From a virus (lineage: Duplodnaviria; Heunggongvirae; Uroviricota; Caudoviricetes), in IMG/VR virus record IMGVR_UViG_2526164662_000035, positions 1 to 19,618 of that record: DNA of 19,618 nt; one strand, given 5' to 3'. A program made the translations under genes and the position numbers. Of the stretch, positions 1 through 13,192 are shown in pieces. Positions within the stretch are counted from its first letter, which is position 1. Each line of letters begins with the position of its first letter. Under the pieces are notes generated by a model. The model worked only from the letters and a program-made list of their open reading frames with translations, was not told the DNA's origin and searched no databases.

Positions 1-852
1 AAGAATCCGTTTGGTGATATCAAATCGGATGGCACGGTGAAAACGGCTCTCGAAAACCTTGATTTAACGGACCTGGGTATCGGTAAAAATATCTCTGGTT
101 CTAACATTAACTTGCTTTCGAGCGCAACAAGTTCTGGTTTTTATGCATACGGCGGTAATACAGACCCGGATTTTGGGATTGATTACGGAATGGTGCTAAC
201 GTTGTTGTATGATTCCGTATCAAAACAACGAGTGCAGATTTATCTTCCGCTAGCAAATTCTGCTGGAGCAACACCAATCATTCGTGCTGTAACCGGCAAC
301 ACTACGATTTGGAAGTATAAGCTCTTTTCTGAAAAATATAAGCCAACGCCAGCAGATGTGGGGATGGGGTCTGGTGCGCCAGCTATCGGTGTCCCATTCT
401 TCTGGCCCTCCGCAGCAATGCCGAATACGGTCATAAGCGAATGGTCTGACATGGTGTTTTTAAAATTTAACGGCGCGTCATTTTCTGCTGCGGTATACCC
501 CAAACTTGCACAGGTGTTCCCTGGACTTACACTTCCCGAAGCTCGAGGCGAATTCCCGCGTATCTGGGATGATGGTCGTGGGGTCGATTCAGGAAGGGCA
601 TTGCTGAGTACTCAGGTGGATGCCATCCGAAATATCACTGGTGAAGTCGGTATTGTTCAATATTTTGGGAATACTACAAATTCTGGTGCGCTTTATTCTG
701 GGGGGGCACAAAACTTAACGAACCTCCAGCCAGGCGGAAGCACTGTTGCTCAAAGTATTCTCTTCAGCGCTGGAAAAGACCCATCGGTATCAATTGCAAA
801 CGAGAACCGACCGCGCAACATCGCATTCAATTTCCTGGTGAGGGCAAAGTAA
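1..852 (+). CDS. phage side tail fibre protein, C-terminal part (5' end upstream of window)
   Basis: Frame 1 is open from base 1 (KNPFGDIKSDGTVKTALENL...), so the ATG at 37 is internal. The sequence is Gly/Ser/Asn-rich and ends ...NRPRNIAFNFLVRAK, as in Mu S / P1 S / e14 Stf-type fibres. A TAATG overlap at 850-854 couples it to the downstream tfa gene. Confidence 0.85.
   Translation, partial: KNPFGDIKSDGTVKTALENLDLTDLGIGKNISGSNINLLSSATSSGFYAYGGNTDPDFGIDYGMVLTLLYDSVSKQRVQIYLPLANSAGATPIIRAVTGNTTIWKYKLFSEKYKPTPADVGMGSGAPAIGVPFFWPSAAMPNTVISEWSDMVFLKFNGASFSAAVYPKLAQVFPGLTLPEARGEFPRIWDDGRGVDSGRALLSTQVDAIRNITGEVGIVQYFGNTTNSGALYSGGAQNLTNLQPGGSTVAQSILFSAGKDPSVSIANENRPRNIAFNFLVRAK
47..72. other. possible relic gix/hix-like invertase crossover site inside the tail-fibre gene
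   Basis: The sequence ctctcGAAAACCttGATTTaacggac resembles, from memory, the hix/gix pattern TTCTTGAAAACC-NN-GGTTTT. The left half-site fits well and the right half is weak. No convincing inverted partner was found near the invertase remnant. Confidence 0.25.
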
Positions 853-1442
853 TGAAACCTGTCTTTGATGAAAATGGTCTGGCAACGCAGGCCGGTGATA
901 TTCGTTGTTTTTATTACGATGCAGTGACCATGGAATATGCTGGCTGGTCAGATGAATATATTAACGCTGGCGTCAGCATGCCGGGTAATTCAACAGATGT
1001 TGATCCAGGTGAAATGGTTGATGGAAAGGTTTTTATGTTCACGGGCATCGGATGGCGACAGGATGAAGATCATCGTGGTGAAACGGTATATTCAACCGAT
1101 GATACCTCATCTTCCACTATAGATTATATCGGCCCAGTCAGGAAGGGGTACACAACTGTTGCGCCATCAGGACCATATCAAAAGTAGGGACGGCAAAAAG
1201 TAGGGTAACGAGATACTGACACACAGCACGTTGCCGATGTTGAAGCCGCTGAACAGAAGAAGGCTGCGTTACTGGCTGAAGCGCAGGATAAAATAAGTCT
1301 CTGGCAGACAGAATTGCGACTGGACATCATCAGTGATGGGGATAAGGAAAGTCTGATTGCGTGGGTGCAGTACATAAAAGCCATTCAGGCTATAGATACT
1401 TCATCTGCGCCAAATATCAACTGGCCCACCGAACCAGAATAG
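852..1442 (+). pseudogene. tail fibre assembly protein (Tfa family) interrupted by two in-frame stop codons
   Basis: The 111-aa ORF 852-1187 (MKPVFDENG...HRGETVYST...PYQK*) is a Tfa N-terminal part. The same frame continues after TAG (1185-1187) and TAA (1206-1208) as ...DTDTQHVADVEAAEQKKAALLAEAQDKISLWQTELRLDIISDGDKESLIAWVQYIKAIQAIDTSSAPNINWPTEPE*, ending at 1442. That is the conserved Tfa C-terminus. Confidence 0.8.
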
Positions 1443-1589
1443 GAACGTTTGGGGAAGAGTTAGATTAAGGGATGAACTAATTGATGATTAATGCTTTTAA
1501 TTACAAAAGTGTAACTGGAGGTGTATTATTATAAAATAAAAAACGAAGCGTGAGAAGGGGCAAAATAGACAATGGCAGCGCTTTTTATT

Positions 1590-1618
1590 TGTGCTTTGAG
1601 TGTTTAACTCAAAGCACA
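1590..1618. repeat. perfect 12-bp-stem hairpin (tgtgctttgagt / actcaaagcaca, 5-nt loop)
   Basis: Read directly from the sequence. It lies between the tfa 3' end and the 3' end of the convergent acyltransferase. No clean U-tract follows on either strand, so a terminator role is uncertain. Confidence 0.5.
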
Positions 1619-1657
1619 TGTTCTAAATTATTTACTTTCGTATTTAAGGGGGTTAGG

Positions 1658-2764
1658 TTATGACCATTTGGTCAAACAAAACGTTTTAAAAATTCTGCGA
1701 TGGGTTTTTCTATGTACATATGAATGACGCTGCCAGGCGCACAAACTTATTATAAAGTATATTCCAATATATAGGAATACATTGGAATAATCAATAAGTC
1801 CGAAAGACACAAACATATATGATACCCAAGCTGTAATCAAACCATGCGTCAAATATATACTATATGAAGCATCACCGACGGAAAATAATAAGTTTAGCCG
1901 GTTTTATTTTACCTTCAAGGCTCAACGCTGCCCAGACACCATAAAAAGCGAAAAACCCCCATATCAAAGGACGATGCCATTCCCCCCCCATGTTTGTTGT
2001 AATATTAAAGTATTCACATAATAAGAATGTGGGAATAAACAAAGTTAATATTGTAAGCGCAATTGTTTTTTTTAACATAGCGCCCAGTAAGTATAATCGA
2101 TACATAAACATACCCATAGCAAATACGACCATTTCTGGTCTTGCCAGTGTTTTCATGAACGGAAGAATTTCGAATATGATGCTGTTATTTTGATAAGTTA
2201 AAATATTAGCTACTATGGATATAGTTAAAAATAAGATCTCTATATACTCTAACCTTGATAATTTGATAGCAATAAAAAATGCAAAAGAAGTATAAAACAA
2301 AAATTCAAGTTGTAATGTCCAACCTATACTTAGAATTGCATCGCGATGCCAGTGAGTGAATGTAATACTCTCAAGATACCATTGAAGACTGATTTTTGTT
2401 TCGGGCCACCAATAAGCAATAGGTGGAGTTGGGGAAGATATATAATGTTTTACTATGAAGGCTGATAGAACGCAAAGGGCGGTAATTAAAGCATATACCG
2501 GGATTATTCTTATTACTCTTCGCATAAAAAAGTTCCCTGCAGATATTTTGAATTCTCCTTCTGATTGAGAGCCACCATATGCTACGTAAGGTATAATAAA
2601 CCACTAATTATGAAAAATATAATAACGCCAAATCCTCCCAGAGATGCAAGGATTTCGATATTCCCAATGCCATATTGTCCAAGTTCGGCATGTGCCAAAA
2701 CCACCATAGCTGCAGCAATAAACCTTAGTGCTTGTATATTGAAAAGCGTTTTTCTTTTATTCAT
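1658..2764 (-). pseudogene. acyltransferase-3 family membrane protein (OafA/Oac-like O-antigen acetylase type), disrupted by two frameshifts
   Basis: Three consecutive minus-strand ORFs read as one protein. ORF 2764-2582 gives MNKRKTLFNIQALRFIAAAMVVLAH...FFIISG. A second frame gives ...YVAYGGSQSEGEFKISAGNFFMRRVIRIIPVY... through 1872. A third frame gives VGDASYSIYLTHGLI... to 1658. The frame changes fall near 2580 and 1875. The region is visibly AT-rich, typical of a phage-borne moron. Confidence 0.8.
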
Positions 2765-2915
2765 TTATATACTGACCCAATTTTGTAATTATGAAACTTT
2801 AATTGATAAGGTAAGCATACTAAATAACTGATAAAAATAATAGATCAATTGAAGGGAACACAATCAGGGTTGTGCCATCTGCTAAACTCCAAATATTAAA
2901 AATCACTAATACCAG

Positions 2916-3176
2916 AGCACTAATGGGGCTCTCCATGATGTACTGGGGACAATTGGACAAAATGGAAAGGGAAATGATTGTTGAGCGAACGCAGGCGGGA
3001 TTAGCTGAGCACTCACTGGAGGTTGGATAGGTAGCCGTAGGCCAAACCTAACAGATGAACAATGGGCGCAGGCCGGGCGATTAATTGCATCAGGCGTTCC
3101 TCGCCAGAAGGTGGCGATCATCTATGATGTTGGTATATCGACACTGTATAAGAAGTTTCCGGTCGGAGATAAATGA
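2916..3176 (+). pseudogene. Gin/Pin/Hin-family DNA invertase, 3' remnant with frameshifts (catalytic N-terminus missing)
   Basis: Fragments ...MEREMIVERTQAGL... and, in another frame, GSRRPNLTDEQWAQAGRLIASGVPRQKVAIIYDVGISTLYKKFPVGDK* (stop at 3174-3176) match the C-terminal HTH region of Gin/Pin-type invertases as I recall them. No N-terminal YxRVS catalytic part is present. Confidence 0.75.
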
Positions 3177-3216
3177 AACCGTAGCACGTCGTATGCAAGA
3201 AGATCGTGCTGCGGTT
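3177..3216. terminator. hairpin between the convergent invertase remnant and the GIY-YIG gene
   Basis: aaccgtagcacg (3177-3188) pairs with cgtgctgcggtt (3205-3216). This gives 12 bp including one G-U pair and a 16-nt loop, followed by a short T-rich tail. Confidence 0.45.
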
Positions 3217-3236
3217 TATGCTTATCACTTAAAGAC

Positions 3237-4106
<870 letters not shown>

Positions 4107-4184
4107 CTAACCCTTTGAATTTACATAGCGCAAAAAGATACCTTTCCTCATAATGTGAGCTAATTTTATGTTTCGTTTGATGAT

Positions 4185-4251
4185 CGGGTCGGTCTCGAAA
4201 ACCGGAGTAGGGGCAACTCTACTGGGGGTTCAAATCCCCCTCTCTCCGCCA
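4185..4251 (+). other. partial tRNA-Ser(CGA) (serU-like): anticodon arm to CCA end only; prophage/island att remnant
   Basis: cggtctcgaaaaccggagtaggggcaactctactgggggttcaaatccccctctctccgcca matches my memory of the E. coli serU 3' two-thirds with one difference in the variable arm. The 5' acceptor and D-arm (GGAGAGATGCCGGAGCGG...) are absent upstream. Confidence 0.75.
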
Positions 4252-4381
4252 CTTTATCAATGACTTATCTCCCGACTTCCCGCCTTGCTTTTCCTAAACA
4301 GAACAATCGTAGAATATTCTTGAAGGGTTAGATCGTCACTGTTTTCTGTTCGATACTGTGACATTCAGCACTTGATTCGCT

Positions 4382-4585
4382 ATGGATCTGACAGGAAGGT
4401 TTCGAGCGAAAATCTGCAGTTATTCAGTCGTTTTCTTATCGGTCACCATTATTCTTTTAGACATTGATCCTACAAAGCTGCCGCAAAGTTGGTGGTGGGA
4501 ACTGAAGTTGCGTAGAGAAGGGGTCAATACCCGGAGGCACACATGGGCTGGCAAAAGTGTAGCGGTATTAGGCGCAGCTATTTAG
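4382..4585 (+). pseudogene. possible decayed N-terminus of a P4-type (DUF4102-like) tyrosine integrase
   Basis: The ORF MDLTGRFRAKI...DPTKLPQSWWWELKLRREGVNTRRHTWAGKSVAVLGAAI loosely follows the LTDxxIRxxKP...GSxxWxxKYRxxGK...LGxYP pattern of integrases found just downstream of tRNA genes. It is only about 65 aa and the match is weak. Confidence 0.3.
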
Positions 4586-4835
4586 CCTAGTTATGTTTTA
4601 TGAAAACTTGATATCATATAAGTGTCTTACTTATTGGCTGTAAATAAGTTTTTCCTAAGGAATTGTTTCTTGAGTATCATTTGTAACTGTAACGGAATTT
4701 ATAATCCTTTGCTTTATTGTTACGGTATTTTTTATCACACCCTATTTTTTATGTGGTTTTTTATACTGAAGTTTGGCAAAGTGAACTTTATATGCATATA
4801 CTTCATCCTGGTTTCAGTTAAATTGGGTGGATGAT

Positions 4836-5579
4836 ATGGCAACTACATGTTCAGTTATATTGATTTTGGAGTCCTTTGATATTTATTTCGGAAAAGAGAG
4901 TGTGTTTCTGGAGAGAGGTTCATCTGTACTTGTCGACTCTAGCTCTAGAGATTTTTTCCTGACATATCCTGAAAGAGTGATAGTGGCGGATTTTGGCGCT
5001 GAGTTTATTAGTCGCTATTTGAAAGCTAATAACTTAAGGGATATTTCTGATTGTAGGGAATATCCATCTTATTTAAAAATAAACTTTGCTGACTTCAGTT
5101 TAATTAAAGGATTAATTAGTTGGGCTAATCACTGTGCTGAATACATAGAAATTTTTGATGAGTCTATTGCTTTTACATGTCTCTCTGCATTTTCTTCTGA
5201 AAAACAATTTGGAGTATTTCTGTTTGGATGTTTGAAAAGCACAGGGGCTAAAGTTAAAACGATTATTCATACGGATTTATCTGCACCATGGCGTCTTAAG
5301 GATATATCATCAAGATTATATCTCAGCGAAAGTTTACTAAAGAGGAAATTGAAAGAAGAGGGGATATCATTCAGTAAGATCATACTTGATGAGAGGATGC
5401 AAATGGCTGAATATTTACTCAGCACTCGTTGTTATCCTATTAGTAAAGTAGCTAAGGTCTGTGGTTATGCCAGTGTCTCATACTTTACTTATGTATTTAG
5501 ACGTTATTTTGGTGTTTCTCCAAGTCAATACTCTCAGAGGAGTTCAGAAAGTAAAATTCTTACTCACCAGGGAATCTGA
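4836..5579 (+). CDS. AraC/XylS-family transcriptional regulator (AT-rich, horizontally acquired type)
   Basis: The C-terminus carries the twin-HTH signature ...WRLKDISSRLYLSESLLKRKLKEEGISFSKIILDERMQMAEYLLSTRCYPISKVAKVCGYASVSYFTYVFRRYFGVSPSQY. I prefer the ATG at 4836 to the GTG at 4827. The stop sits about 5 bp from the IS end, so the natural C-terminus may be altered. Confidence 0.85.
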   Translation: MATTCSVILILESFDIYFGKESVFLERGSSVLVDSSSRDFFLTYPERVIVADFGAEFISRYLKANNLRDISDCREYPSYLKINFADFSLIKGLISWANHCAEYIEIFDESIAFTCLSAFSSEKQFGVFLFGCLKSTGAKVKTIIHTDLSAPWRLKDISSRLYLSESLLKRKLKEEGISFSKIILDERMQMAEYLLSTRCYPISKVAKVCGYASVSYFTYVFRRYFGVSPSQYSQRSSESKILTHQGI

Positions 5580-5583
5580 TCAT

Positions 5584-5848
5584 TGTTCTTGCCCCCTTAT
5601 TTCCAGACAGGGGGTGTATCTTAAGTTAACGTTACCCGCTGACGTCGATATTCTCGCGGAGAGCGATAACCCAACGCACTGTGCGGATGGTTTTCATTGT
5701 AATGTTCGATCGCCACTGCAAGATTATGCAATGCCGTTCTTACATTCGGTTTCGGCATGAACGCGATGTAGTCTTCCTTCATCGTTTTCACGAATCTTTC
5801 TGCCATTCCATTACTCTGAGGACTGCTGATTACCCATGAGGAGTACAA
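5584..5848 (-). mobile_element. IS3-family (IS2-like) insertion sequence remnant: transposase C-terminal fragment plus terminal inverted repeat
   Basis: The minus-strand ORF 5621-5848 reads ...[27 protein letters not shown]...[19 protein letters not shown], which is the end of a DDE integrase-type OrfB. After the stop, ...tgtctggaaataagggggcaagaaca resembles the IS2 end (...TGTCTGGAAATATAGGGGCAAATCCA, from memory). The rest of the IS is missing. Confidence 0.75.
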
Positions 5849-6068
5849 TTAAACGGGTTAATCAGTTTCTCCATTTGAAAGAAAAAAGACTTCTGTACTG
5901 TTTGATATCACCGCTATTTTCTTATTTTCTGTGCAGGTCGTAGTGGGACAAAACTGAGACACATAAGGCCTCACAATGGCTTGCAAGGCTTTACATGTTT
6001 TGATGTGGTGGGACGTGTGAGCGCAGTGTTGATGGGGTAATACTTTGAATTAGAAGCGGATTCTTATG

Positions 6069-7424: not shown

Positions 7425-7976
7425 TTACGCTTCCTGCTCTTTCTTGATACGTTGCACCGTCTGTGTGCTGACACTGAAATCTTTTGCTACGCTCCGAATT
7501 GATCCACCATTCGCGAGAGCGGCAACAATTCCCGCTCGATCAATTGCTTTTCCATTACCACGTTTTGCTATACGTCCAGCGGCCTTAGCTGCGGCAATCC
7601 CCTCACGTTGCCGCTCAAGCATCATTTCACGTTCCATTTGTGCCACTGCTGCAAGCACTGTGAGCATCATATTCCCTGCGGGAGAGTTCTTCCCTGTCTT
7701 AAAGTCTTCTTTATGGAAATGCACAGACACGCCGCGCTCTGTTAATTGCTCAACCGTTGCCAGTAGGTCGGCTGTATTACGGCAAAGTCGATCAATGCTG
7801 TGAACATGCAAAACATCACCTTCACGCACATAGTTCATCATTGCCTCAAACTGTGGGCGCTGGGTATTCTTGCCTGACGCTTTATCTTCAAAGACTTTAT
7901 CAAGAGTTACTCCAGCTAATTGACGGTCTGTGTTTTGTTGGACAGTCGATACCCTAATGTATCCAATATTAGCCAT
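7425..7976 (-). CDS. serine recombinase, resolvase type (183 aa)
   Basis: The sequence MANIGYIRVSTVQQNTDRQ...GDVLHVHSIDRLCRNTADLL...AVAQMEREMMLERQREG...C-terminal HTH (SIRSVAKDFSVSTQTVQRI) is collinear with Tn3/gamma-delta resolvase. I prefer the start at 7976 because AAGGA lies 8-9 nt upstream, whereas the ATG at 7982 is too close to the SD. The C-terminal linker (KRGNGKAIDRAGIV) looks like a resolvase rather than an invertase (GRPPKLT). Confidence 0.88.
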   Translation of the reverse strand: MANIGYIRVSTVQQNTDRQLAGVTLDKVFEDKASGKNTQRPQFEAMMNYVREGDVLHVHSIDRLCRNTADLLATVEQLTERGVSVHFHKEDFKTGKNSPAGNMMLTVLAAVAQMEREMMLERQREGIAAAKAAGRIAKRGNGKAIDRAGIVAALANGGSIRSVAKDFSVSTQTVQRIKKEQEA

Positions 7977-7990
7977 TTTCATTTTCCTTC

Positions 7991-8110
7991 TGTGTTGATT
8001 TGTGTGTAGTGATTATTGATCGTGTTGATTAGGTGTGTAAATGACTTTTTTCACTACGAAATTCGAAGGTTTTTAGTGTGGTGATTTAGCCTGCTTTATC
8101 ACTACACGTC
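7991..8110. promoter_or_regulatory. repeat cluster upstream of the recombinase gene: candidate res site / operator region
   Basis: The direct repeat gtgttgatt(t/a)g(t/g)tgtgta occurs at about 7993 and 8022. gtgtagtgat (8004-8013) is inverted relative to atcactacac (8098-8107). Degenerate copies are tcactacg (about 8051) and agtgtggtgat (about 8073). The position immediately 5' of the resolvase gene matches the Tn3-family res layout. Confidence 0.35.
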
Positions 8111-8174
8111 TTGCATGAGAATCATGTAGTTATGCTTTGGTAAAATTAGCAAGCTATTAAATAGCGTGTTTATT

Positions 8175-8196
8175 TTGAAAAAATTAATTTTTTCAA
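8175..8196. repeat. 22-bp perfect AT-rich palindrome ttgaaaaaattaattttttcaa
   Basis: Read directly from the sequence. It is flanked by an imperfect extension (cgtgtt...aacacg). Confidence 0.9.
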
Positions 8197-8504
8197 CACG
8201 TGAAAGGAACTTGTTCGACAAATAATAGATTGATTTTTAATCAACAATTTCTGATAGTGCTCTGTAAGCCACATTACACAAGGCGCAGCGAAAGTGATGT
8301 AAAAGTGAAGAAAGCTAACATTGCACTTTTAAGCTACTTTTCATTGAATTTTTAGTATGGAATTACATAGGGATTAATCATCAATTAATCTTGAATTTAA
8401 GCCTGTTTTAGATGTTTAATTTTTGATAGCAAGAAACACTTTTAGAAGATCATTGCACAGATGTTATGTGATAAATGGATGTAACGGTAGGTCACTGTGA
8501 ACTA

Positions 8505-8641
8505 CCCCCCACAGAATTCTGTTATCCTTAACTTTTAAAGAAATATGCACCCTAACAGAAAACTGTTACCCCAACCCTAACAGAATTATGTTAGACACCC
8601 CCACAGAAAACTGTTAGCCACCCCTACAGAATTTTGTTACC
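8505..8641. repeat. five iterons (consensus CCC-N-ACAGAA-WWNTGTTA-NCC): candidate replication origin
   Basis: The copies are acagaattctgtta (8511), acagaaaactgtta (8555), acagaattatgtta (8580), acagaaaactgtta (8603) and acagaattttgtta (8626). Spacings are 44, 25, 23 and 23 bp, and each copy follows a C-run. A strongly AT-rich stretch follows at 8642-8710. Confidence 0.8.
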
Positions 8642-8711
8642 TATTAGATCAACTATCAAACTACAATTAAATTATCTTTTATAAATTCTTTTATCTTTAA
8701 AGAATAATTAT

Positions 8712-8746
8712 AGGGATACCCGTTAGGGGAGTCTTCGACTATCCCT
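8712..8746. other. compact multi-hairpin element next to the iterons and AT-rich tract
   Basis: An outer stem agggata/tatccct encloses ccc-gtta-ggg and agtc-ttc-gact hairpins. This was read directly from the sequence and the function is unknown. Confidence 0.4.
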
Positions 8747-9500
8747 TAATCTATTGGCATTCGCCAGAACCTTGCACAAGTTAGAGTGTTAGTCGTTAGA
8801 CTGCTTGTCATAACACATAGTTTTTTGTTTGTTGATGTTAGTTAGTAGATCTATGTTCGCTAATGCCGCTCACAACGAATATGTAATCTACTATGTGCAA
8901 ATAGCCTACGGCTTGCGTAAGGCTAAATAGTCTTGCGCTGTGCGCAGAACGATAATTAACTAACTACCATCTAACGATCATCAATCTATTTAAGAGAAAA
9001 TCTATTGTGCAATACTCTGACGAGTGCAATAACCTTGTGTGCTACGCGTTAGCGATGTTAGCACATAGACACAGACAACAACCAACAACAAACAAAAAGA
9101 ATGGTTTTAGTAGTTGAAGGTTAAATAAGATTCTACCGCTTAAATCAAGCCGTAGGCGAGCTAAACGTATATAAGGTAGGGAAACACTTAGCGGTAATAG
9201 ATTAGCTCGTTATAGAGTTTCTGAGAGCTTTGCAGGTATTTTATAAGATGTCTGAAATTAGATTTTATCTATCATCATCTTCCCATATACCTAACAAATA
9301 CAAAATAACCCCCTTAAATAAGCCTCTGGCGAGCTAAACAGCCATTACATAAGGGAATGTATTGTTTTTATCAAAACCTCGTTAGAACGCGTTTTAGAGC
9401 GTTTTAGACAATAATAAAGAATAGCACTACACATGAGAGCACGAATTGCTAAGAAATATCATAACTTACTGAAAATGATCAATATTTATATGGATAGGGG

Positions 9501-9529
9501 TTGACAAAAGCTTTTAGTCGTGGTAAAGT
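9501..9529 (+). promoter_or_regulatory. sigma-70-type promoter of the early operon
   Basis: TTGACA (9501-9506) and TAAAGT (9524-9529) are separated by a 17-bp spacer. This is the only near-consensus -35 element upstream of the 9650 operon. Confidence 0.55.
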
Positions 9530-9539
9530 AATATTAGGG

Positions 9540-9558
9540 ACAGAAAACATTCTTATCC
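9540..9558 (+). promoter_or_regulatory. iteron-like sequence overlapping the predicted transcription start (candidate autoregulatory operator)
   Basis: acagaaaacattcttatcc shares acagaaaac with iterons 2 and 4 and ...ttatcc with iteron 1. It lies 11 nt downstream of the -10 element. Confidence 0.4.
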
Positions 9559-9582
9559 TCTAAGTAATTAAACCAATGCACC

Positions 9583-9624
9583 GCACTTTGAAGCCCAAGG
9601 CTTGCAAGGTGTCTTTTTCTTTTA
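9583..9624 (+). terminator. intrinsic-terminator-like hairpin and U-tract in the leader of the early operon (attenuator candidate)
   Basis: The stem pairs 9584-9595 with 9599-9611 (aagcc/ggctt plus 7 more pairs, one bulged G, loop caa). It is followed by tctttttctttt. It lies between the promoter and the AGGAGG RBS at about 9637. Confidence 0.55.
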
Positions 9625-9649
9625 ACCAAATAGAATAGGAGGTTAATTA

Positions 9650-9850
9650 ATGAAGTATTACACTCCACAGGATGTAATCGAAGCCTGGAAACGTGGTGAG
9701 ATCAATCGTTTTAAAGTAAGGATGAACAGGAACACAGCGCGACGCTGTGGTTATCCAGAGCGTGAAAAATGCTTTGACGATGCACTAAAAATTATTGATG
9801 AATTAAGAAAAAATGAAAAAGGATCTGAAAAAGAATCTGAAACAGAGTAA
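9650..9850 (+). CDS. hypothetical protein (66 aa), first gene of the early operon
   Basis: A strong AGGAGG SD lies 7 nt upstream. The protein has a charged C-terminal tail and no motif I recognise. Confidence 0.6.
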   Translation: MKYYTPQDVIEAWKRGEINRFKVRMNRNTARRCGYPEREKCFDDALKIIDELRKNEKGSEKESETE

Positions 9851-9869: not shown

Positions 9870-10040
9870 ATGAGCGAAACTACAGAAAAGAAAAGACAAC
9901 CACGCACTTGCTTTCATATTCCTGATGAAGTATTTCAGGTGTTGTTTAAAGAAGCCAGAAGTAAACGTATCACTGTTACAGATTACATTCTTGATATGTT
10001 GAAAAGAGAGGCTGAAACACTCTCAAACAAAAGCAAGTGA
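9870..10040 (+). CDS. putative ribbon-helix-helix (CopG/Arc-like) DNA-binding protein (56 aa)
   Basis: The start at ATG 9870 follows GAAGGAG. The sequence RTCFHIPDEVFQVLFKEARSKRITVTDYILDMLKRE fits a beta-alpha-alpha RHH layout. The longer ORF from 9813 overlaps the previous gene and lacks an SD. Confidence 0.55.
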   Translation: MSETTEKKRQPRTCFHIPDEVFQVLFKEARSKRITVTDYILDMLKREAETLSNKSK

Positions 10041-10093
10041 TTTTTATCACCATAGTAGCGCCGTAGAGCGTGATTACATCAAGGAGATTTTTA

Positions 10094-10663
10094 ATGATTA
10101 ATGAAGAACAATTTGTAAAAGTTCCTATGTGGATTCTAAAAATAAGCCAAGTAAACGGGCATAAATTTACAGATAGTGCTAAAAACCTTTACTGCTATTT
10201 GAGAGGGTTTGATCGTGCATTTCCCTCTTACGCTAAGATAGGCGATGTTTTTGGCATAACACCAAGAGCAGCAGAAGAAAGGGTTAAGAAATTGCTCGAA
10301 ATGGGATTAATTATAAAAGATGCACGACCAGGAAGCTCTAACCTTTATCGAGTGCTTGATATTCCAAAAGGAGAATCATCACTACCTGATCCTTCTGAGA
10401 AAGAAGACGAATCTAATGAAATATTGAATGTTTCCGAAATCATCGTTGAAGAAGAAACACAGGAATCAGAGTTCCCTGAGCGGCCCGAAATTTTTACTTG
10501 GCTTCTTTCCCTTGATAAGAAGAAACCACCGCACGAAGAAACAGAAGATTTTGTAAAACGTGCATTAGATTCAAAGAATATCTATCTTGAGAAACAGGCT
10601 TTTCACGATCTGATAATATCTCTAAGAGAAAAAAGTGAAATATACGATTCAATACCATTCTAA
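10094..10663 (+). CDS. winged-helix DNA-binding protein, candidate replication initiator / iteron-binding protein (189 aa)
   Basis: The start at 10094 follows AAGGAG. FVKVPMWILK...AKNLYCYLRGFDRAFPSYAKIGDVFGITPRAAEERVKKLLEMGLII resembles the N-terminal wHTH of phage/plasmid Rep and replication-O-type proteins, followed by an acidic linker. It lies downstream of the iterons. The functional call is an inference. Confidence 0.55.
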   Translation: MINEEQFVKVPMWILKISQVNGHKFTDSAKNLYCYLRGFDRAFPSYAKIGDVFGITPRAAEERVKKLLEMGLIIKDARPGSSNLYRVLDIPKGESSLPDPSEKEDESNEILNVSEIIVEEETQESEFPERPEIFTWLLSLDKKKPPHEETEDFVKRALDSKNIYLEKQAFHDLIISLREKSEIYDSIPF

Positions 10664-11991: not shown

Positions 11992-12263
11992 TAATGAAAA
12001 TCATTTGCATTTATATAATAAAAATGTTATATTTGTATTAAGGGTAGATAAAAAGGTTTTGACTGGTGTTAATCCTTCTACTGTCATAAATCCCTGCATA
12101 TGGAAGGTGATAGCCTCAAGGGTTGAGTGGCATTAACCTCTAACAAATATTACCTTCCATCTCTCAAGAAGTTTTAGAATAATCATAACTCCCTCTTTGA
12201 TTGTTGATTGTTTCTACGTTGTGTTGATGAATGTTGTTAGGCATTGTGCTTAATTTTGATAAA

Positions 12264-12308
12264 AGCGGGTAGGTGTTATCTCCTTGCCCTTCCCGCTCTT
12301 ATTTTTCA
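12264..12308 (+). terminator. possible terminator after the early operon
   Basis: agcggg (12264-12269) pairs with cccgct (12292-12297) and is followed by cttatttttc. The loop is long (22 nt), so confidence is moderate to low. Confidence 0.35.
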
Positions 12309-12734
12309 TCTATGCTTATCCTAAAGCTCCTTATTTTGTCCGAAAACATTAAAGAGCCTTACACTGATAGTTATATTTTATAACTATTTACTAACATCAT
12401 TAAACTCTTATTTAATGACAGAAGTTAGTAACAGAATAATCTATTAAGTTGTTGTCAAAAAACTATCATCTGCATAGCGTTAGCCGCAAGCAGAGAGAGT
12501 TTAGCTAAGAATTGTGCAATAACCTTTGGAAATATTGATAGCAAAACGGGTTTTATAGACTGCAAATCTATAATCTTTGGTTGTAAAAACGCTTTTTCTG
12601 AAACGGTAGATTATTGTTGGTGTAGTTAATCCCTATTAAAATTTAATCTGTGAGTAGATTGGAATAGTGATTCCTTAAAATCTGACTGGTGCATCCACAC
12701 CATGAAAGATAGCGGTTAGCCACCGCACCCGAAT

Positions 12735-12790
12735 AGATATTCCTGATTGATTCCGCATGTTTTCCTAAGAGCATGTTTTCAGGAATATCT
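12735..12790. repeat. 12-bp perfect inverted repeat with a 32-nt spacer
   Basis: agatattcctga (12735-12746) pairs with tcaggaatatct (12779-12790). The spacer contains two copies of gcatgttttc, and a third agcatgttt lies near 12815. Confidence 0.85.
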
Positions 12791-12894
12791 GTTCACCCTT
12801 TAAACCTATCTTTAAGCATGTTTAATAAGCATTCTTAGAGATACGTTTAAAACCTCCTCAAGGTTTTACTTATCGCTGTGTATTGCCCGACACG

Positions 12895-12954
12895 TTAATA
12901 AATCCCCCTCGCTATTCTCAGATTGAACCTCTTATAGCCTGGGGGATTTATTAA
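12895..12954. repeat. 14-bp perfect inverted repeat with a 32-nt spacer, about 30 nt upstream of the capsid-module first ORF
   Basis: ttaataaatccccc (12895-12908) pairs with gggggatttattaa (12941-12954). Confidence 0.85.
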
Positions 12955-12982
12955 ATTCCAACATAATGGAATCGTTATATAA

Positions 12983-13192
12983 ATGAAACAAGAAATTATC
13001 CTGAAATATGGCAATGAAAAGTTAACACTAACTGAAGATGTGTTGAATGCTACAGCCTACGCGCTTGGTATCACTCCCACAGAATTAAAGAAACAGTGTG
13101 AACGTCTTTATAAGGCTGAAAGCAATAAACCATCTCACCAAGATTTGATTAATGCTAAAGCTCAACAAATCAAACAATCTAAGGAAAAATAA
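12983..13192 (+). CDS. hypothetical protein (69 aa) preceding the head genes
   Basis: The ORF is on the strand of the structural genes, and its stop overlaps the next start (TAATG at 13189-13194). No obvious SD is present. Confidence 0.45.
   Translation: MKQEIILKYGNEKLTLTEDVLNATAYALGITPTELKKQCERLYKAESNKPSHQDLINAKAQQIKQSKEK

Follow-up and report, generated by a model that had tools for sequence, protein, structure and literature searches.

A conserved promoter-to-terminator unit ahead of the early operon in a family of satellite-like islands of Escherichia coli and related genera

The early operon of a ~13-kb satellite-like island, contained in the 19,618-nt stretch of DNA analyzed here (the window; virus record IMGVR_UViG_2526164662_000035), is preceded at positions 9501–9623 by a self-contained promoter-to-terminator unit, in which an intrinsic terminator probably throttles the operon and yields an sRNA-like RNA of ~85 nt. 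In the mechanism we propose, a near-consensus, extended −10 σ70 promoter would start transcription around 9536, and the nascent RNA would fold a small 5′ stem-loop (9537–9559), the two arms of which are the sequence earlier supposed to be an operator. An A/U-rich single-stranded linker would come next, and a 13-bp hairpin with one bulge (9583–9612), followed by UCUUUUUCUUUU, would form an intrinsic terminator that ends ~14 nt upstream of the Shine-Dalgarno sequence of p1, with which the operon begins. Most transcripts would stop at this terminator, releasing an ~85-nt RNA built like the Hfq/ProQ-type sRNAs of enterobacteria, and p1, p2 and Rep would be made only from the transcripts that read through. 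In the integrated island, the terminator would thereby throttle both replication and the early functions. The start site, a high termination efficiency and limiting or regulated read-through are predicted features of this model.

The promoter, hairpin, U-tract, ribosome binding site (RBS) and ATG that the preliminary description of this DNA had located here are all present. Together, promoter, leader and terminator are the most conserved noncoding feature of the island family, and the leader is best read as a new family within a known kind of RNA.

Promoter and distribution of the unit

The σ70 promoter lies on the + strand at 9501–9529 and consists of a −35 element TTGACA (9501–9506), a 17-nt spacer and the extended −10 element TGgTAAAGT, with TG at 9521–9522 and TAAAGT at 9524–9529. 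In a consensus scan of the window it scored 10 out of 12 and, among the five sites reaching that score, it is the only one to combine a perfect −35 with the TG. Taken together, promoter-like sites are no more frequent in the window than chance would give (36 found vs. 50.5 expected); what lends credibility to this one is where it lies, which way it points and that it is conserved across genera. The −35 reads TTGAC(A/T) in each distinct family sequence listed; the −10 is variable across relatives (TAAAGT, AATAAT, TATTGT, TAGAAT, TATAGT and others). Upstream of the −35, a conserved A/T-rich block, TGAAAATGATCAATATTTAT, occupies 9470–9489 on the + strand, and a sequence beginning with TGAAAATGATCAAnnT precedes the promoter in the E. 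coli, Klebsiella, Leclercia, Raoultella, Enterobacter and Cronobacter relatives. This block may function as an UP element or as a binding site for another factor. From the promoter geometry, transcription on the + strand is predicted to start at 9536–9537, 7–8 nt past the −10. The consensus scan revealed no other promoter-like site on the + strand from 9530 to ~11450, which leaves read-through of the leader terminator as the only route into the early operon. The whole replication and early operon lies behind this unit, and read-through, given a terminator that functions as predicted, would decide whether the island replicates.

The island family is widespread. Of 5426 complete E. coli genomes, 709 (~13%) have the promoter-leader-terminator unit, among them O26:H11 11368 and O104:H4 2011C-3493; CAU16175 and MRE162 are further carrier strains, and relatives of the island occur in Klebsiella, Enterobacter, Citrobacter, Cronobacter and others. 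The hairpin alone was found at 709 places in 643 E. coli genomes and is unannotated every time. Each p1 homologue examined, whether from Escherichia, Klebsiella, Raoultella, Leclercia, Enterobacter, Cronobacter or Citrobacter, has the unit ahead of it, and all ten contexts retrieved by protein and inspected (from Klebsiella michiganensis, K. pneumoniae, Leclercia, Raoultella, Enterobacter, Cronobacter, Citrobacter and one metagenome contig) carry it in that position. A promoter and leader terminator ahead of the first gene are thus conserved, with covariation, in at least seven genera, in line with the proposal under study. Searching PLSDB with the leader and the hairpin gave two matches only; an occurrence in true plasmids was rejected, as both are E. 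coli records and one of them is chromosome-sized. In the literature searched, we found neither the hairpin sequence nor a description of the island family and its regulation.

The 5′ leader, the supposed Rep operator and the predicted small RNA

The leader RNA opens with a stem-loop at 9537–9559 (+ strand; GGGA.AGAA-AACA-UUCU..UCCU), and both of its arms come from the internal sequence at 9540–9558. Of 18 leader variants, 16 fold over their first ~29 nt with p ≤ 0.07 relative to shuffled sequences, with arms that differ from one variant to another (AGAA/UUCU, AGGAA/UUCCU, AGAGAA/UUCUCU, GGGGAGA/UCUCUCC and GAUGAA/UUCAUC); the stem-loop of the window itself is weak (−4.4 kcal/mol, p = 0.07). 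RNAalifold returned no consensus structure for the 5′ region on a MAFFT alignment, so that support for the stem-loop comes from the folds of the individual sequences, and a convincing 5′ stem-loop is missing in the Enterobacter/Cronobacter clade.

The sequence at 9540–9558 had been described as an iteron-like operator through which Rep would repress its own promoter. In the iteron plasmids pSC101, P1, F and R6K, rep is autoregulated through operator half-iterons, and the island shares with these plasmids a winged-helix (wHTH) Rep whose specificity domain co-varies with the iterons. The 189-aa, replication initiator O-like Rep (10094–10663, + strand) matches phrog_270, replication initiation protein (1.2e-8), and, below the curated cut-off, HTH_36; its N-terminal wHTH domain co-varies perfectly with iteron type over five types. 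Five iterons, exact or near-exact copies of CCnACAGAAnnnTGTTA, lie on the + strand at 8508–8639 and are followed by an AT-rich stretch. The iteron pattern has 13 matches in the window, a number that no shuffle reached, and the region is the presumed replication origin of the island, outside the leader unit.

Unlike the situation in iteron plasmids, however, these iterons lie ~900 nt upstream of the promoter, and the leader does not co-vary with Rep. The 9540 site has ACAGAAAAC (9 nt, at +5 to +13 of the predicted transcript) in common with two of the five iterons, which is the one observation to favor an operator. This amounts to half an iteron only. The full iteron pattern, CCNACAGAANNNTGTTA, does not match at 9540 even with up to three mismatches, and the 'iteron-like' label is the weak point of the earlier description. 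Moreover, ACAGAA is a common string, occurring 32 times in the window. A 5′ leader sequence identical to that of the window is present in elements L128 and L006, together with GTAACGAT-type iterons and a different Rep domain, and the leader sequence was also found with three further iteron types, whereas L134 has the same Rep domain and iterons as the window and carries GGGGUAAGAAAAGCAUCUCCCC instead of its leader. As the leader sequence thus fails to track Rep and iteron type, it provides no evidence of an operator at the promoter. We rejected the candidate operator and consider repression by Rep of its own promoter through 9540–9558 extremely improbable. Within the gate earlier proposed for the early operon, the promoter and terminator stand and the iteron-like operator falls, which corrects a tempting mis-annotation, that of an RNA stem taken for a Rep operator.

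Downstream of the stem-loop, the A/U-rich linker (9560–9582, + strand) contains UCUAAGUAAUUAAA and is predicted to be unpaired in most variants. This sequence conforms to UCUAARUAAUYAAA in 15 of 16 aligned E. coli-type elements, L153 having UUUAAAUAAUUAAA. A leader peptide was considered, as a 20-codon frame starting with the ATG at 9577 runs through the hairpin, and was rejected because neither frame nor ATG is conserved: L003-type elements have the frame shifted, L134 lacks it, and in Klebsiella it comprises only three codons.

The predicted terminated RNA measures ~84–88 nt (9536 to ~9620), and the earlier suggestion that the ~85-nt leader is itself a regulatory sRNA is compatible with its predicted anatomy of 5′ stem-loop, A/U-rich linker and terminator with U-tail. 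This raises the possibility that the terminated RNA is the main product, a trans-acting Hfq/ProQ-type sRNA directed at host, helper-phage or island mRNAs, and that the same promoter also feeds the operon because the terminator is merely leaky; the leader would then have a dual function, as sRNA and as mRNA leader, like IsrK. The build is canonical for enterobacteria, with a 5′ stem-loop from +2, an unpaired A/U-rich stretch, a stable terminator and a long U-tail; the noncoding unit is also more conserved than the neighboring gene, and IsrK provides the precedent of a prophage sRNA with a partly read-through terminator (PMC4825925). A search for targets was less favorable to a trans-acting role. 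No second copy or complement of the linker above chance occurs in the window, and the best duplex of the linker with the translation-initiation regions of the island (−15.6 kcal/mol) falls inside the distribution obtained with shuffled linkers (mean −14.2, 5th percentile −18.1), none of these regions thus beating the shuffled controls as a target. In addition, conservation of the linker, the would-be seed, stops at the E. coli-type elements whereas that of the hairpin goes beyond them, the reverse of the usual pattern in sRNA families. The whole window gave no Rfam match at gathering thresholds, neither to an sRNA nor to a riboswitch or leader family, and only chance-level matches appeared within 7900–9700 at E values up to 10. 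Weighing these points, we hold a trans-acting sRNA as main product to be possible, on a tentative basis, and prefer a terminator that throttles the early operon and releases the RNA in doing so.

The terminator hairpin and its covariation

In the hairpin at 9583–9612 (+ strand), G9583–C9595 pairs with G9599–U9612 over 13 bp, with 8 bp in the lower stem and 5 bp in the upper, one bulged G (9604) and the loop CAA. Its folding energy on the + strand is −15.5 kcal/mol (z = −2.5), a stability equaled by 4 of 200 shuffles; on the − strand it is −10.1 kcal/mol (z = −0.1), which is not above chance. A simple terminator scan of the window did not list this hairpin. Directly after it comes the U-tract UCUUUUUCUUUU (9612–9623, + strand), in which the 3′ end of the RNA is predicted, and a further 13–14 nt lead from the end of the U-tract to the RBS. 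Within the U-tract, TTTTCTTTTA is invariant across E. coli-type elements, and a U-tract is kept in the Klebsiella, Enterobacter, Cronobacter and metagenome relatives. Only in the Citrobacter/Enterobacter 'C-type' loci (L179, L189 and L190) is it degraded while the hairpin is kept, suggesting that the hairpin may serve a role beyond, or other than, termination.

The preliminary description had called for folding of the leader and a look at covariation and conservation in related elements, and on all of these counts the hairpin is well supported. It folds on the + strand, is conserved in related elements and, at nine pairs in 15 distinct sequences, is 100% paired (135/135 cells). Compensatory double changes occur at three pairs of the stem (U-A to A-U, U-A to C-G, and G-C to U-A or C-G) and come from a few lineages, namely Klebsiella-type, L193 and C-type; an A-U pair is co-deleted in several lineages, comprising many elements. 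The covariation score was reached by none of 500 shuffles, and slid controls scored ~0. The loop is 3–6 nt long, or ~19 nt in one clade, and variable in sequence (CAA, GUCA, CAAGA, CAACAA, UUAA, AAUC and the 19-nt insert). Three features never vary across genera: the GCAC/GGUGU base of the hairpin, a single U·G pair and the bulged G. When the window is compared with divergent elements of E. coli or Enterobacter, hairpin plus U-tract show 83–88% identity and the p1 coding DNA 54–73%, so the hairpin is more conserved than the adjacent gene.

Since these hairpin features are invariant while the proteins of the elements have diverged to ~35% identity, the sequences suggest that a conserved partner reads the hairpin. 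This partner would more likely be a host factor (RNA polymerase/NusA, Hfq or ProQ) than an element-specific protein.

The same data bear on whether the hairpin acts as DNA, either as a palindromic protein-binding site or as a signal for single-strand initiation close to the origin. It forms an imperfect inverted repeat, the long noncoding region around it also includes the origin, and it persists in the clade with the degraded U-tract, as a DNA element might. However, its conserved G·U/U·G pairs and a bulge on one side only make it asymmetric, it folds on the + strand only, and the single-base changes in the stem are all G-U-compatible on that strand. A loop ranging from 3 to ~19 nt would, moreover, alter the spacing of half-sites, and the hairpin always lies 40–110 nt downstream of the conserved promoter (~50 bases in the window), with a U-tract following in all clades but one. 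A function at the DNA level is thus very improbable, and the features of the hairpin are those of a structure acting in RNA, as in the intrinsic terminator that we favor.

The early operon and comparison with known systems

Behind the terminator, the early operon is arranged in the order p1, p2, iteron-type Rep and further small genes. The RBS AGGAGG (9637–9642) and p1 together span 9637–9850 on the + strand; p1 (66 aa) starts at ATG 9650 and extends over 9650–9850. In all loci examined in which a p1 homologue was detectable, the hairpin lies directly upstream. The start codon of p1 is CTG, TTG or ATT in three clades, and these non-ATG starts would be an extra damping of p1. The protein is modeled as a three-helix protein (pLDDT 85) with no fold match in the PDB, and it gave no Pfam, PHROG or PDB sequence match and no detectable similarity to N or Q. 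The second gene, p2 (9870–10040, + strand), encodes 56 aa that look ribbon-helix-helix-like by eye, with no Pfam or PDB sequence match. It was rejected as a promoter-specific autoregulator, since p2, which occurs in two types or is absent, does not follow promoter type.

Read-through could also be the object of regulation, the hairpin being a gate at which a helper-phage or island factor, such as p1, suppresses termination and thereby induces the island. The invariant base, U·G pair and bulged G exceed what a generic terminator needs and are typical of a recognition element. No CI/Cro-type repressor gene adjoining the promoter is recognizable in the island of the window, implying that another off-switch would be needed, and p1, always the first gene after the hairpin, has an arginine-rich stretch. 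Additionally, a Rep DNA-binding domain 99% identical to that of the island is present in the virulent Phapecoctavirus Mt1B1_P17, indicating recent genetic exchange with a candidate helper.

Other observations argue against such a gate, however. No competing antiterminator structure appears in the minimum-free-energy or centroid folds of the leader variants, no conserved CGCUCUUA-like (boxA) motif was found in the leader relatives, and the loop varies in sequence and length, unlike nut boxB. Neither the leader nor the hairpin was found in phage records. As for p1, its model is a plain three-helix protein, and p1 and hairpin do not co-vary: the type E2 hairpin is shared by elements with p1 proteins only ~36% identical, and Klebsiella elements have a nearly identical p1 arginine-rich region with a different hairpin stem. 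Lacking a sequence or fold match and any co-variation with hairpin type, p1 was rejected as a recognizable RNA-binding protein or antiterminator. We regard a regulated gate as unlikely. It is distinctly unlikely that two functions are combined, the invariants of the hairpin forming a dedicated site at which a helper or host factor switches termination off and an abundant ~85-nt RNA doubling as an immunity or interference sRNA. If true, this would mean that the island is induced by antitermination rather than by repressor inactivation, a P4-like logic built from unrelated parts, in an island family present in about one in eight complete E. coli genomes.

The terminating leader that we favor has counterparts in several known systems. 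In E. coli, the leader-derived sRNAs SroA and SroG and the trp-leader RNA rnTrpL illustrate how leader terminators release small RNAs. The island unit is like these leaders in having a promoter, a short structured leader, a stem-loop with U-tract before the first ORF and a discrete small RNA as its (predicted) product, and unlike them in that no antiterminator fold, aptamer or conserved peptide was found. The PL-nutL-N region of lambda likewise comprises an early promoter, an RNA hairpin and then a small basic protein as first early gene. In contrast to the lambda N and Q systems, the island hairpin is itself the terminator, its loop is variable, boxA is missing and p1 bears no similarity to N or Q.

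In the immunity system of satellite P4, CI RNA pairs with two complementary repeats, seqA and seqC. As in P4, a satellite replication operon lies behind a leader transcribed from its own promoter; P4 is silenced by premature termination, with which the anatomy of the island is compatible, and the P4 leader yields a stable small RNA, as is predicted for the island. Unlike P4, the island has no second copy or complement of the hairpin arms or of the linker in the window, and a conventional intrinsic terminator is predicted. It also has no gene homology to P4, encoding an iteron-type Rep rather than the P4 alpha primase and carrying its own capsid gene. The P4 PLE leader, CI RNA and seqA/seqC are summarized in PMC4825925.

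IsrK, from the Gifsy-1 prophage of Salmonella, is an sRNA ending at a Rho-independent terminator, and some of its transcripts read through to become the mRNA of regulatory genes further downstream; translation is activated by pairing of the short with the long form (PMC4825925). The island leader would share this mobile-element design of an sRNA with a terminator and a read-through mRNA. It differs in showing no sequence or Rfam similarity to IsrK and in that the leader is no more complementary to the p1 initiation region than expected by chance. With a short, defined RNA at its center, the leader unit is a candidate new RNA family for Rfam.

The island is integrated at a tRNA-Thr repeat and also carries, besides the capsid gene, one tape-measure-like and one Dit-like gene as well as genes for a tyrosine integrase and a serine recombinase. 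Searching genome contigs with the capsid protein gave only three close loci, and a 14-mer scan of viral contigs gave mostly chance matches. Regulation through an invertible segment was considered and rejected, the early module having the same orientation in 18 of 18 capsid-anchored loci. A hix-like half-site is present at 9366–9376, with an inverted partner at 12049–12062.

The island and its early operon

The window is E. coli chromosomal DNA, of which ~6069 to ~19083 shares 99.9% identity with an island in strain CAU16175. A partial tRNA-Thr repeat at ~6069 forms the left edge of this island. A serine recombinase/invertase, matching phrog_125 as a DNA invertase, is encoded on the minus strand (7425-7982), followed by a gene-free stretch of ~1.67 kb (7983-9649). 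From 9650, the plus strand carries the early operon, comprising p1 (66 aa), p2 (56 aa), the winged-helix replication initiator Rep (189 aa; phrog_270 match, 1.2e-8) and small ORFs. A second gene-free stretch (11992-12982) precedes genes for a major capsid protein of the lambda-E type, a tape-measure-like protein (613 aa) and a Dit-like protein, and the gene order ends with a tyrosine integrase. Because the island contains no terminase, portal or tail-tube genes, it looks, from its gene content, like a phage satellite; no matching described family was found in the literature searched. Positions 1-6068 constitute a separate, adjoining island, a mobile region with genes for an AraC-family regulator, a GIY-YIG domain protein and an acyltransferase fragment. 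The window is thus a case of tandem islands at one tRNA site, and ARAGORN detected no intact tRNA in it.

Promoter and terminator hairpin of the leader

The promoter, hairpin, U-tract and RBS of the preliminary description were all recovered at their reported positions. The promoter (TTGACA-17-TAAAGT, 9501-9529) has a TG at -15/-14 and a consensus score of 10/12. This score is reached by five sites in the window, but the perfect -35 and the TG occur together only here. As promoter-like matches are not enriched in the window (36 observed vs 50.5 expected), the match alone proves nothing; the -35, however, reads TTGAC(A/T) in every one of >30 distinct family sequences, whose sources were E. coli genomes, IMG/VR contigs and further contigs found via p1 homologues. 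The consensus scan found no other promoter-like site between the terminator and ~11450, and the U-tract (9612-9623) ends just 13 nt before the RBS, so that the early operon appears to be expressible by read-through only.

In the hairpin, 9583-9595 pairs with 9599-9612, leaving G9604 bulged, and UCUUUUUCUUUU follows directly 3'. Its predicted fold (-15.5 kcal/mol) was equalled in 4/200 shuffles, while that of the reverse strand (-10.1 kcal/mol, z = -0.1) is no better than chance; the hairpin is absent from the output of a simple terminator scan. A 321-nt query detected the leader unit in 709 of the 5426 complete E. coli genomes, with identities down to ~70%, and a 50-nt hairpin query found 709 places in 643 genomes, all unannotated. 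The hairpin lies directly upstream of p1 in all distinct sequences gathered; the capsid-related locus L175, which has a different early module, carries neither. Between the window and divergent E. coli/Enterobacter elements, conservation peaks at the hairpin and U-tract (83-88% identity), the neighbouring p1 coding DNA reaching 54-73%.

Five stem types were distinguished (lower-case g denotes the bulge): E1 in E. coli, GCACUUUGAAGCC...GGCUUgCAAGGUGU; E2 in E. coli, Enterobacter and Cronobacter, missing one A-U pair from both sides; K in Klebsiella, Leclercia and Raoultella, GCACUAUUAGCC...GGCUgAAUGGUGU; L193, named after one metagenome contig, GCACUUCGAAACC...GGUUUgCGAGGUGU; and C in Citrobacter and Enterobacter (elements L179, L189 and L190), GCACUAUCAGG-19 nt-CCUgGAUGGUGU. 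Across 15 aligned sequences, pairing is 100% at all nine pairs that can be aligned, three of which show compensatory double changes (9 cells). The covariation score was reached by 0/500 shuffles, and slid controls showed essentially no covariation, although these statistics should not be over-read, as the compensatory events stem from few lineages. With the C-type added, one stem position has a third kind of Watson-Crick pair. The elements L002, L005, L129 and L177 carry single stem changes, all of them tolerated by G-U pairing on the plus strand. Loops measure 3-6 nt, or ~19 nt in the C-type, and the invariant parts are the stem base, one U·G pair and the bulged G. Together, pairing and covariation provide good support for an RNA hairpin on the plus strand and argue against a double-stranded DNA binding site. 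The proposed leader terminator is hence borne out as a conserved, covarying element. The C-type clade has retained the hairpin despite an eroded U-tract, which hints at a second role.

Several further features lie upstream of the promoter. A block at 9366-9410, TTATCAAAACCTCGTTAGAACGCGTTTTAGAGCGTTTTAGAC, with tandem GCGTTTTAGA inside, precedes the -35 by ~100-130 nt; E. coli elements show hardly any variation in its 9381-9410 part, and the block is partly kept as ACGCGTTACAGAGCGTTT in Klebsiella and Enterobacter relatives. It could be a binding site for a regulator of the promoter. Most elements have a GATC in this conserved upstream DNA (TATC in L005), and in the Klebsiella/Raoultella relatives L183-L186 and L194 a gene for a phage-type Dam methylase (PF05869) precedes the promoter by ~1 kb, ahead of the same promoter-leader unit. 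TTATCAAAACC at 9366-9384 resembles a Hin/Gin-type hix half-site, with an inverted partner 2.66 kb away (12049-12062), the pair bracketing the whole early operon. No evidence for inversion of the early module was obtained, its orientation being the same in 18/18 capsid-anchored loci.

Rep specificity and the 5' end of the leader

Five iterons, CCnACAGAAnnnTGTTA, at 8508-8639 in the gene-free region are followed by an AT-rich stretch, and together they likely constitute the origin. Comparison with the equivalent regions of elements L003-L006, L129, L131 and L134 revealed different iterons at the same place (GTAACGATnnGTTAC, TAGGTCACTGTGAACTA, CCTACCyAGGAAATGAGTT and CCCCTATCAAnnnTGATA). The five iteron types correspond one-to-one to distinct Rep N-terminal domains joined to a common C-terminal part, which validates the Rep-iteron assignment and is a clear instance of origin specificity being swapped as a module among related islands. 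Remnants of several iteron types are present in L131.

The sequence at 9540-9558 had been described as an iteron-like operator through which Rep might repress its own promoter. This reading is rejected, since the leader sequence does not track Rep/iteron types: L128 and L006 have GGGACAGAAAACATTCTTATCC unchanged although their Rep domain and iterons differ from those of the window, near-identical versions accompany three further iteron types, and L134 shares the Rep domain and iterons of the window, yet its leader reads GGGGTAAGAAAAGCATCTCCCC. Moreover, the full iteron pattern has no match at 9540 even with three mismatches allowed, so that the iteron-like label fails as well, and the window has 32 copies of ACAGAA.

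In predicted folds, the purine-rich left part of this sequence instead pairs with its pyrimidine-rich right part, giving a 5' stem-loop (9537-9559) whose first base is +2 in the predicted transcript. In 16/18 variants, with differing arm sequences, the 5'-terminal ~29 nt exceed most shuffles in folding; among the E. coli variants, the window's own hairpin is the weakest. RNAalifold gave no consensus for this stem-loop on a sequence-based alignment, and the Enterobacter/Cronobacter clade has a 4-bp version at best.

The Rep N-terminal region also occurs in phages. In the virulent 151-kb Phapecoctavirus Mt1B1_P17 (MT496970), the first ~100 codons of a 328-aa hypothetical protein (20722-21708; 1542-2528 of the compared locus L195) show 99.2% DNA identity with the iteron-specificity domain (window 10053-10407), and phage BI-EHEC carries a 94.6% copy of the N-terminal wHTH domain. 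These similarities suggest that the island family has recently exchanged DNA with a phage that is a candidate helper or antagonist. Between origin and promoter, 8700-9340 contains a diverged ~170-nt direct duplication, visible as a 32-nt repeat (9135-9166 vs 9308-9339), and GC-rich palindromes. One of these, TTGCGCTGTGCGCAG (8935-8949), recurs in L003, L005 and L129 within different surrounding sequence. The region could harbour a packaging site, signals for single-strand initiation or additional RNAs.

Possible read-through control and the predicted terminated RNA

In the simplest model, the strong promoter would feed a strong intrinsic terminator, yielding a ~85-nt RNA and only a trickle of p1-p2-rep mRNA. 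The p1 start codon is CTG, TTG or ATT in three clades, which fits selection for very low p1 expression. In the Enterobacter/Cronobacter-type and Citrobacter-type relatives (L151 2864, L144, L191, L192, L193, L179 3355), p1 has no ATG, and its apparent start lies 5-7 nt after a strong Shine-Dalgarno sequence; gene callers miss or over-extend it (109-aa and 75-aa models, for example).

Read-through may also be actively regulated: no recognisable CI/Cro-type repressor adjoins the promoter in the window island, and the invariant non-Watson-Crick features of the hairpin exceed the needs of a generic terminator. Helper-dependent antitermination, as proposed at the outset, would be one such form of control. 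Predicted folds of leader variants revealed no competing antiterminator, and leader comparison among related elements no conserved leader peptide. A conserved host factor seems a more likely hairpin partner than p1, because hairpin type and p1 do not go together: elements sharing the same hairpin have p1 proteins only ~36% identical, and in Klebsiella elements the p1 arginine-rich region is nearly identical while the stem differs. Structure prediction yielded a confident three-helix bundle for p1, and a fold search with this model found no match.

Possibly, the terminated RNA acts as an Hfq/ProQ-type sRNA, having the canonical build of this class and a single-stranded linker (9560-9582) invariant in nearly all E. 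coli-type elements. Unlike the hairpin, however, the linker is not conserved outside these elements, and no island target scored above shuffled controls. A dual role of the kind shown for IsrK of Gifsy-1 (PMC4825925) may apply and would be compatible with the terminator model. Functionally closest to the leader unit are leader terminators releasing small RNAs, the IsrK read-through arrangement and P4 immunity, in which transcription terminates prematurely in the leader of the P4 replication operon (PMC4825925). The unit is not P4-type, since the defining complementary repeats were sought in the window and are absent, nor a nut site, as the loop is variable and boxA is missing; neither a riboswitch nor any other Rfam family matched. 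It is classed as a putative new RNA family, combining an intrinsic leader terminator with a candidate sRNA.

A long inverted repeat at 12895-12954 may form a second gate or regulator site. Its 21-nt arms are 90% complementary and enclose an 18-nt loop, with CCCCC/GGGGG as the core; the first capsid/late operon gene begins ~30 nt further downstream, at 12983.
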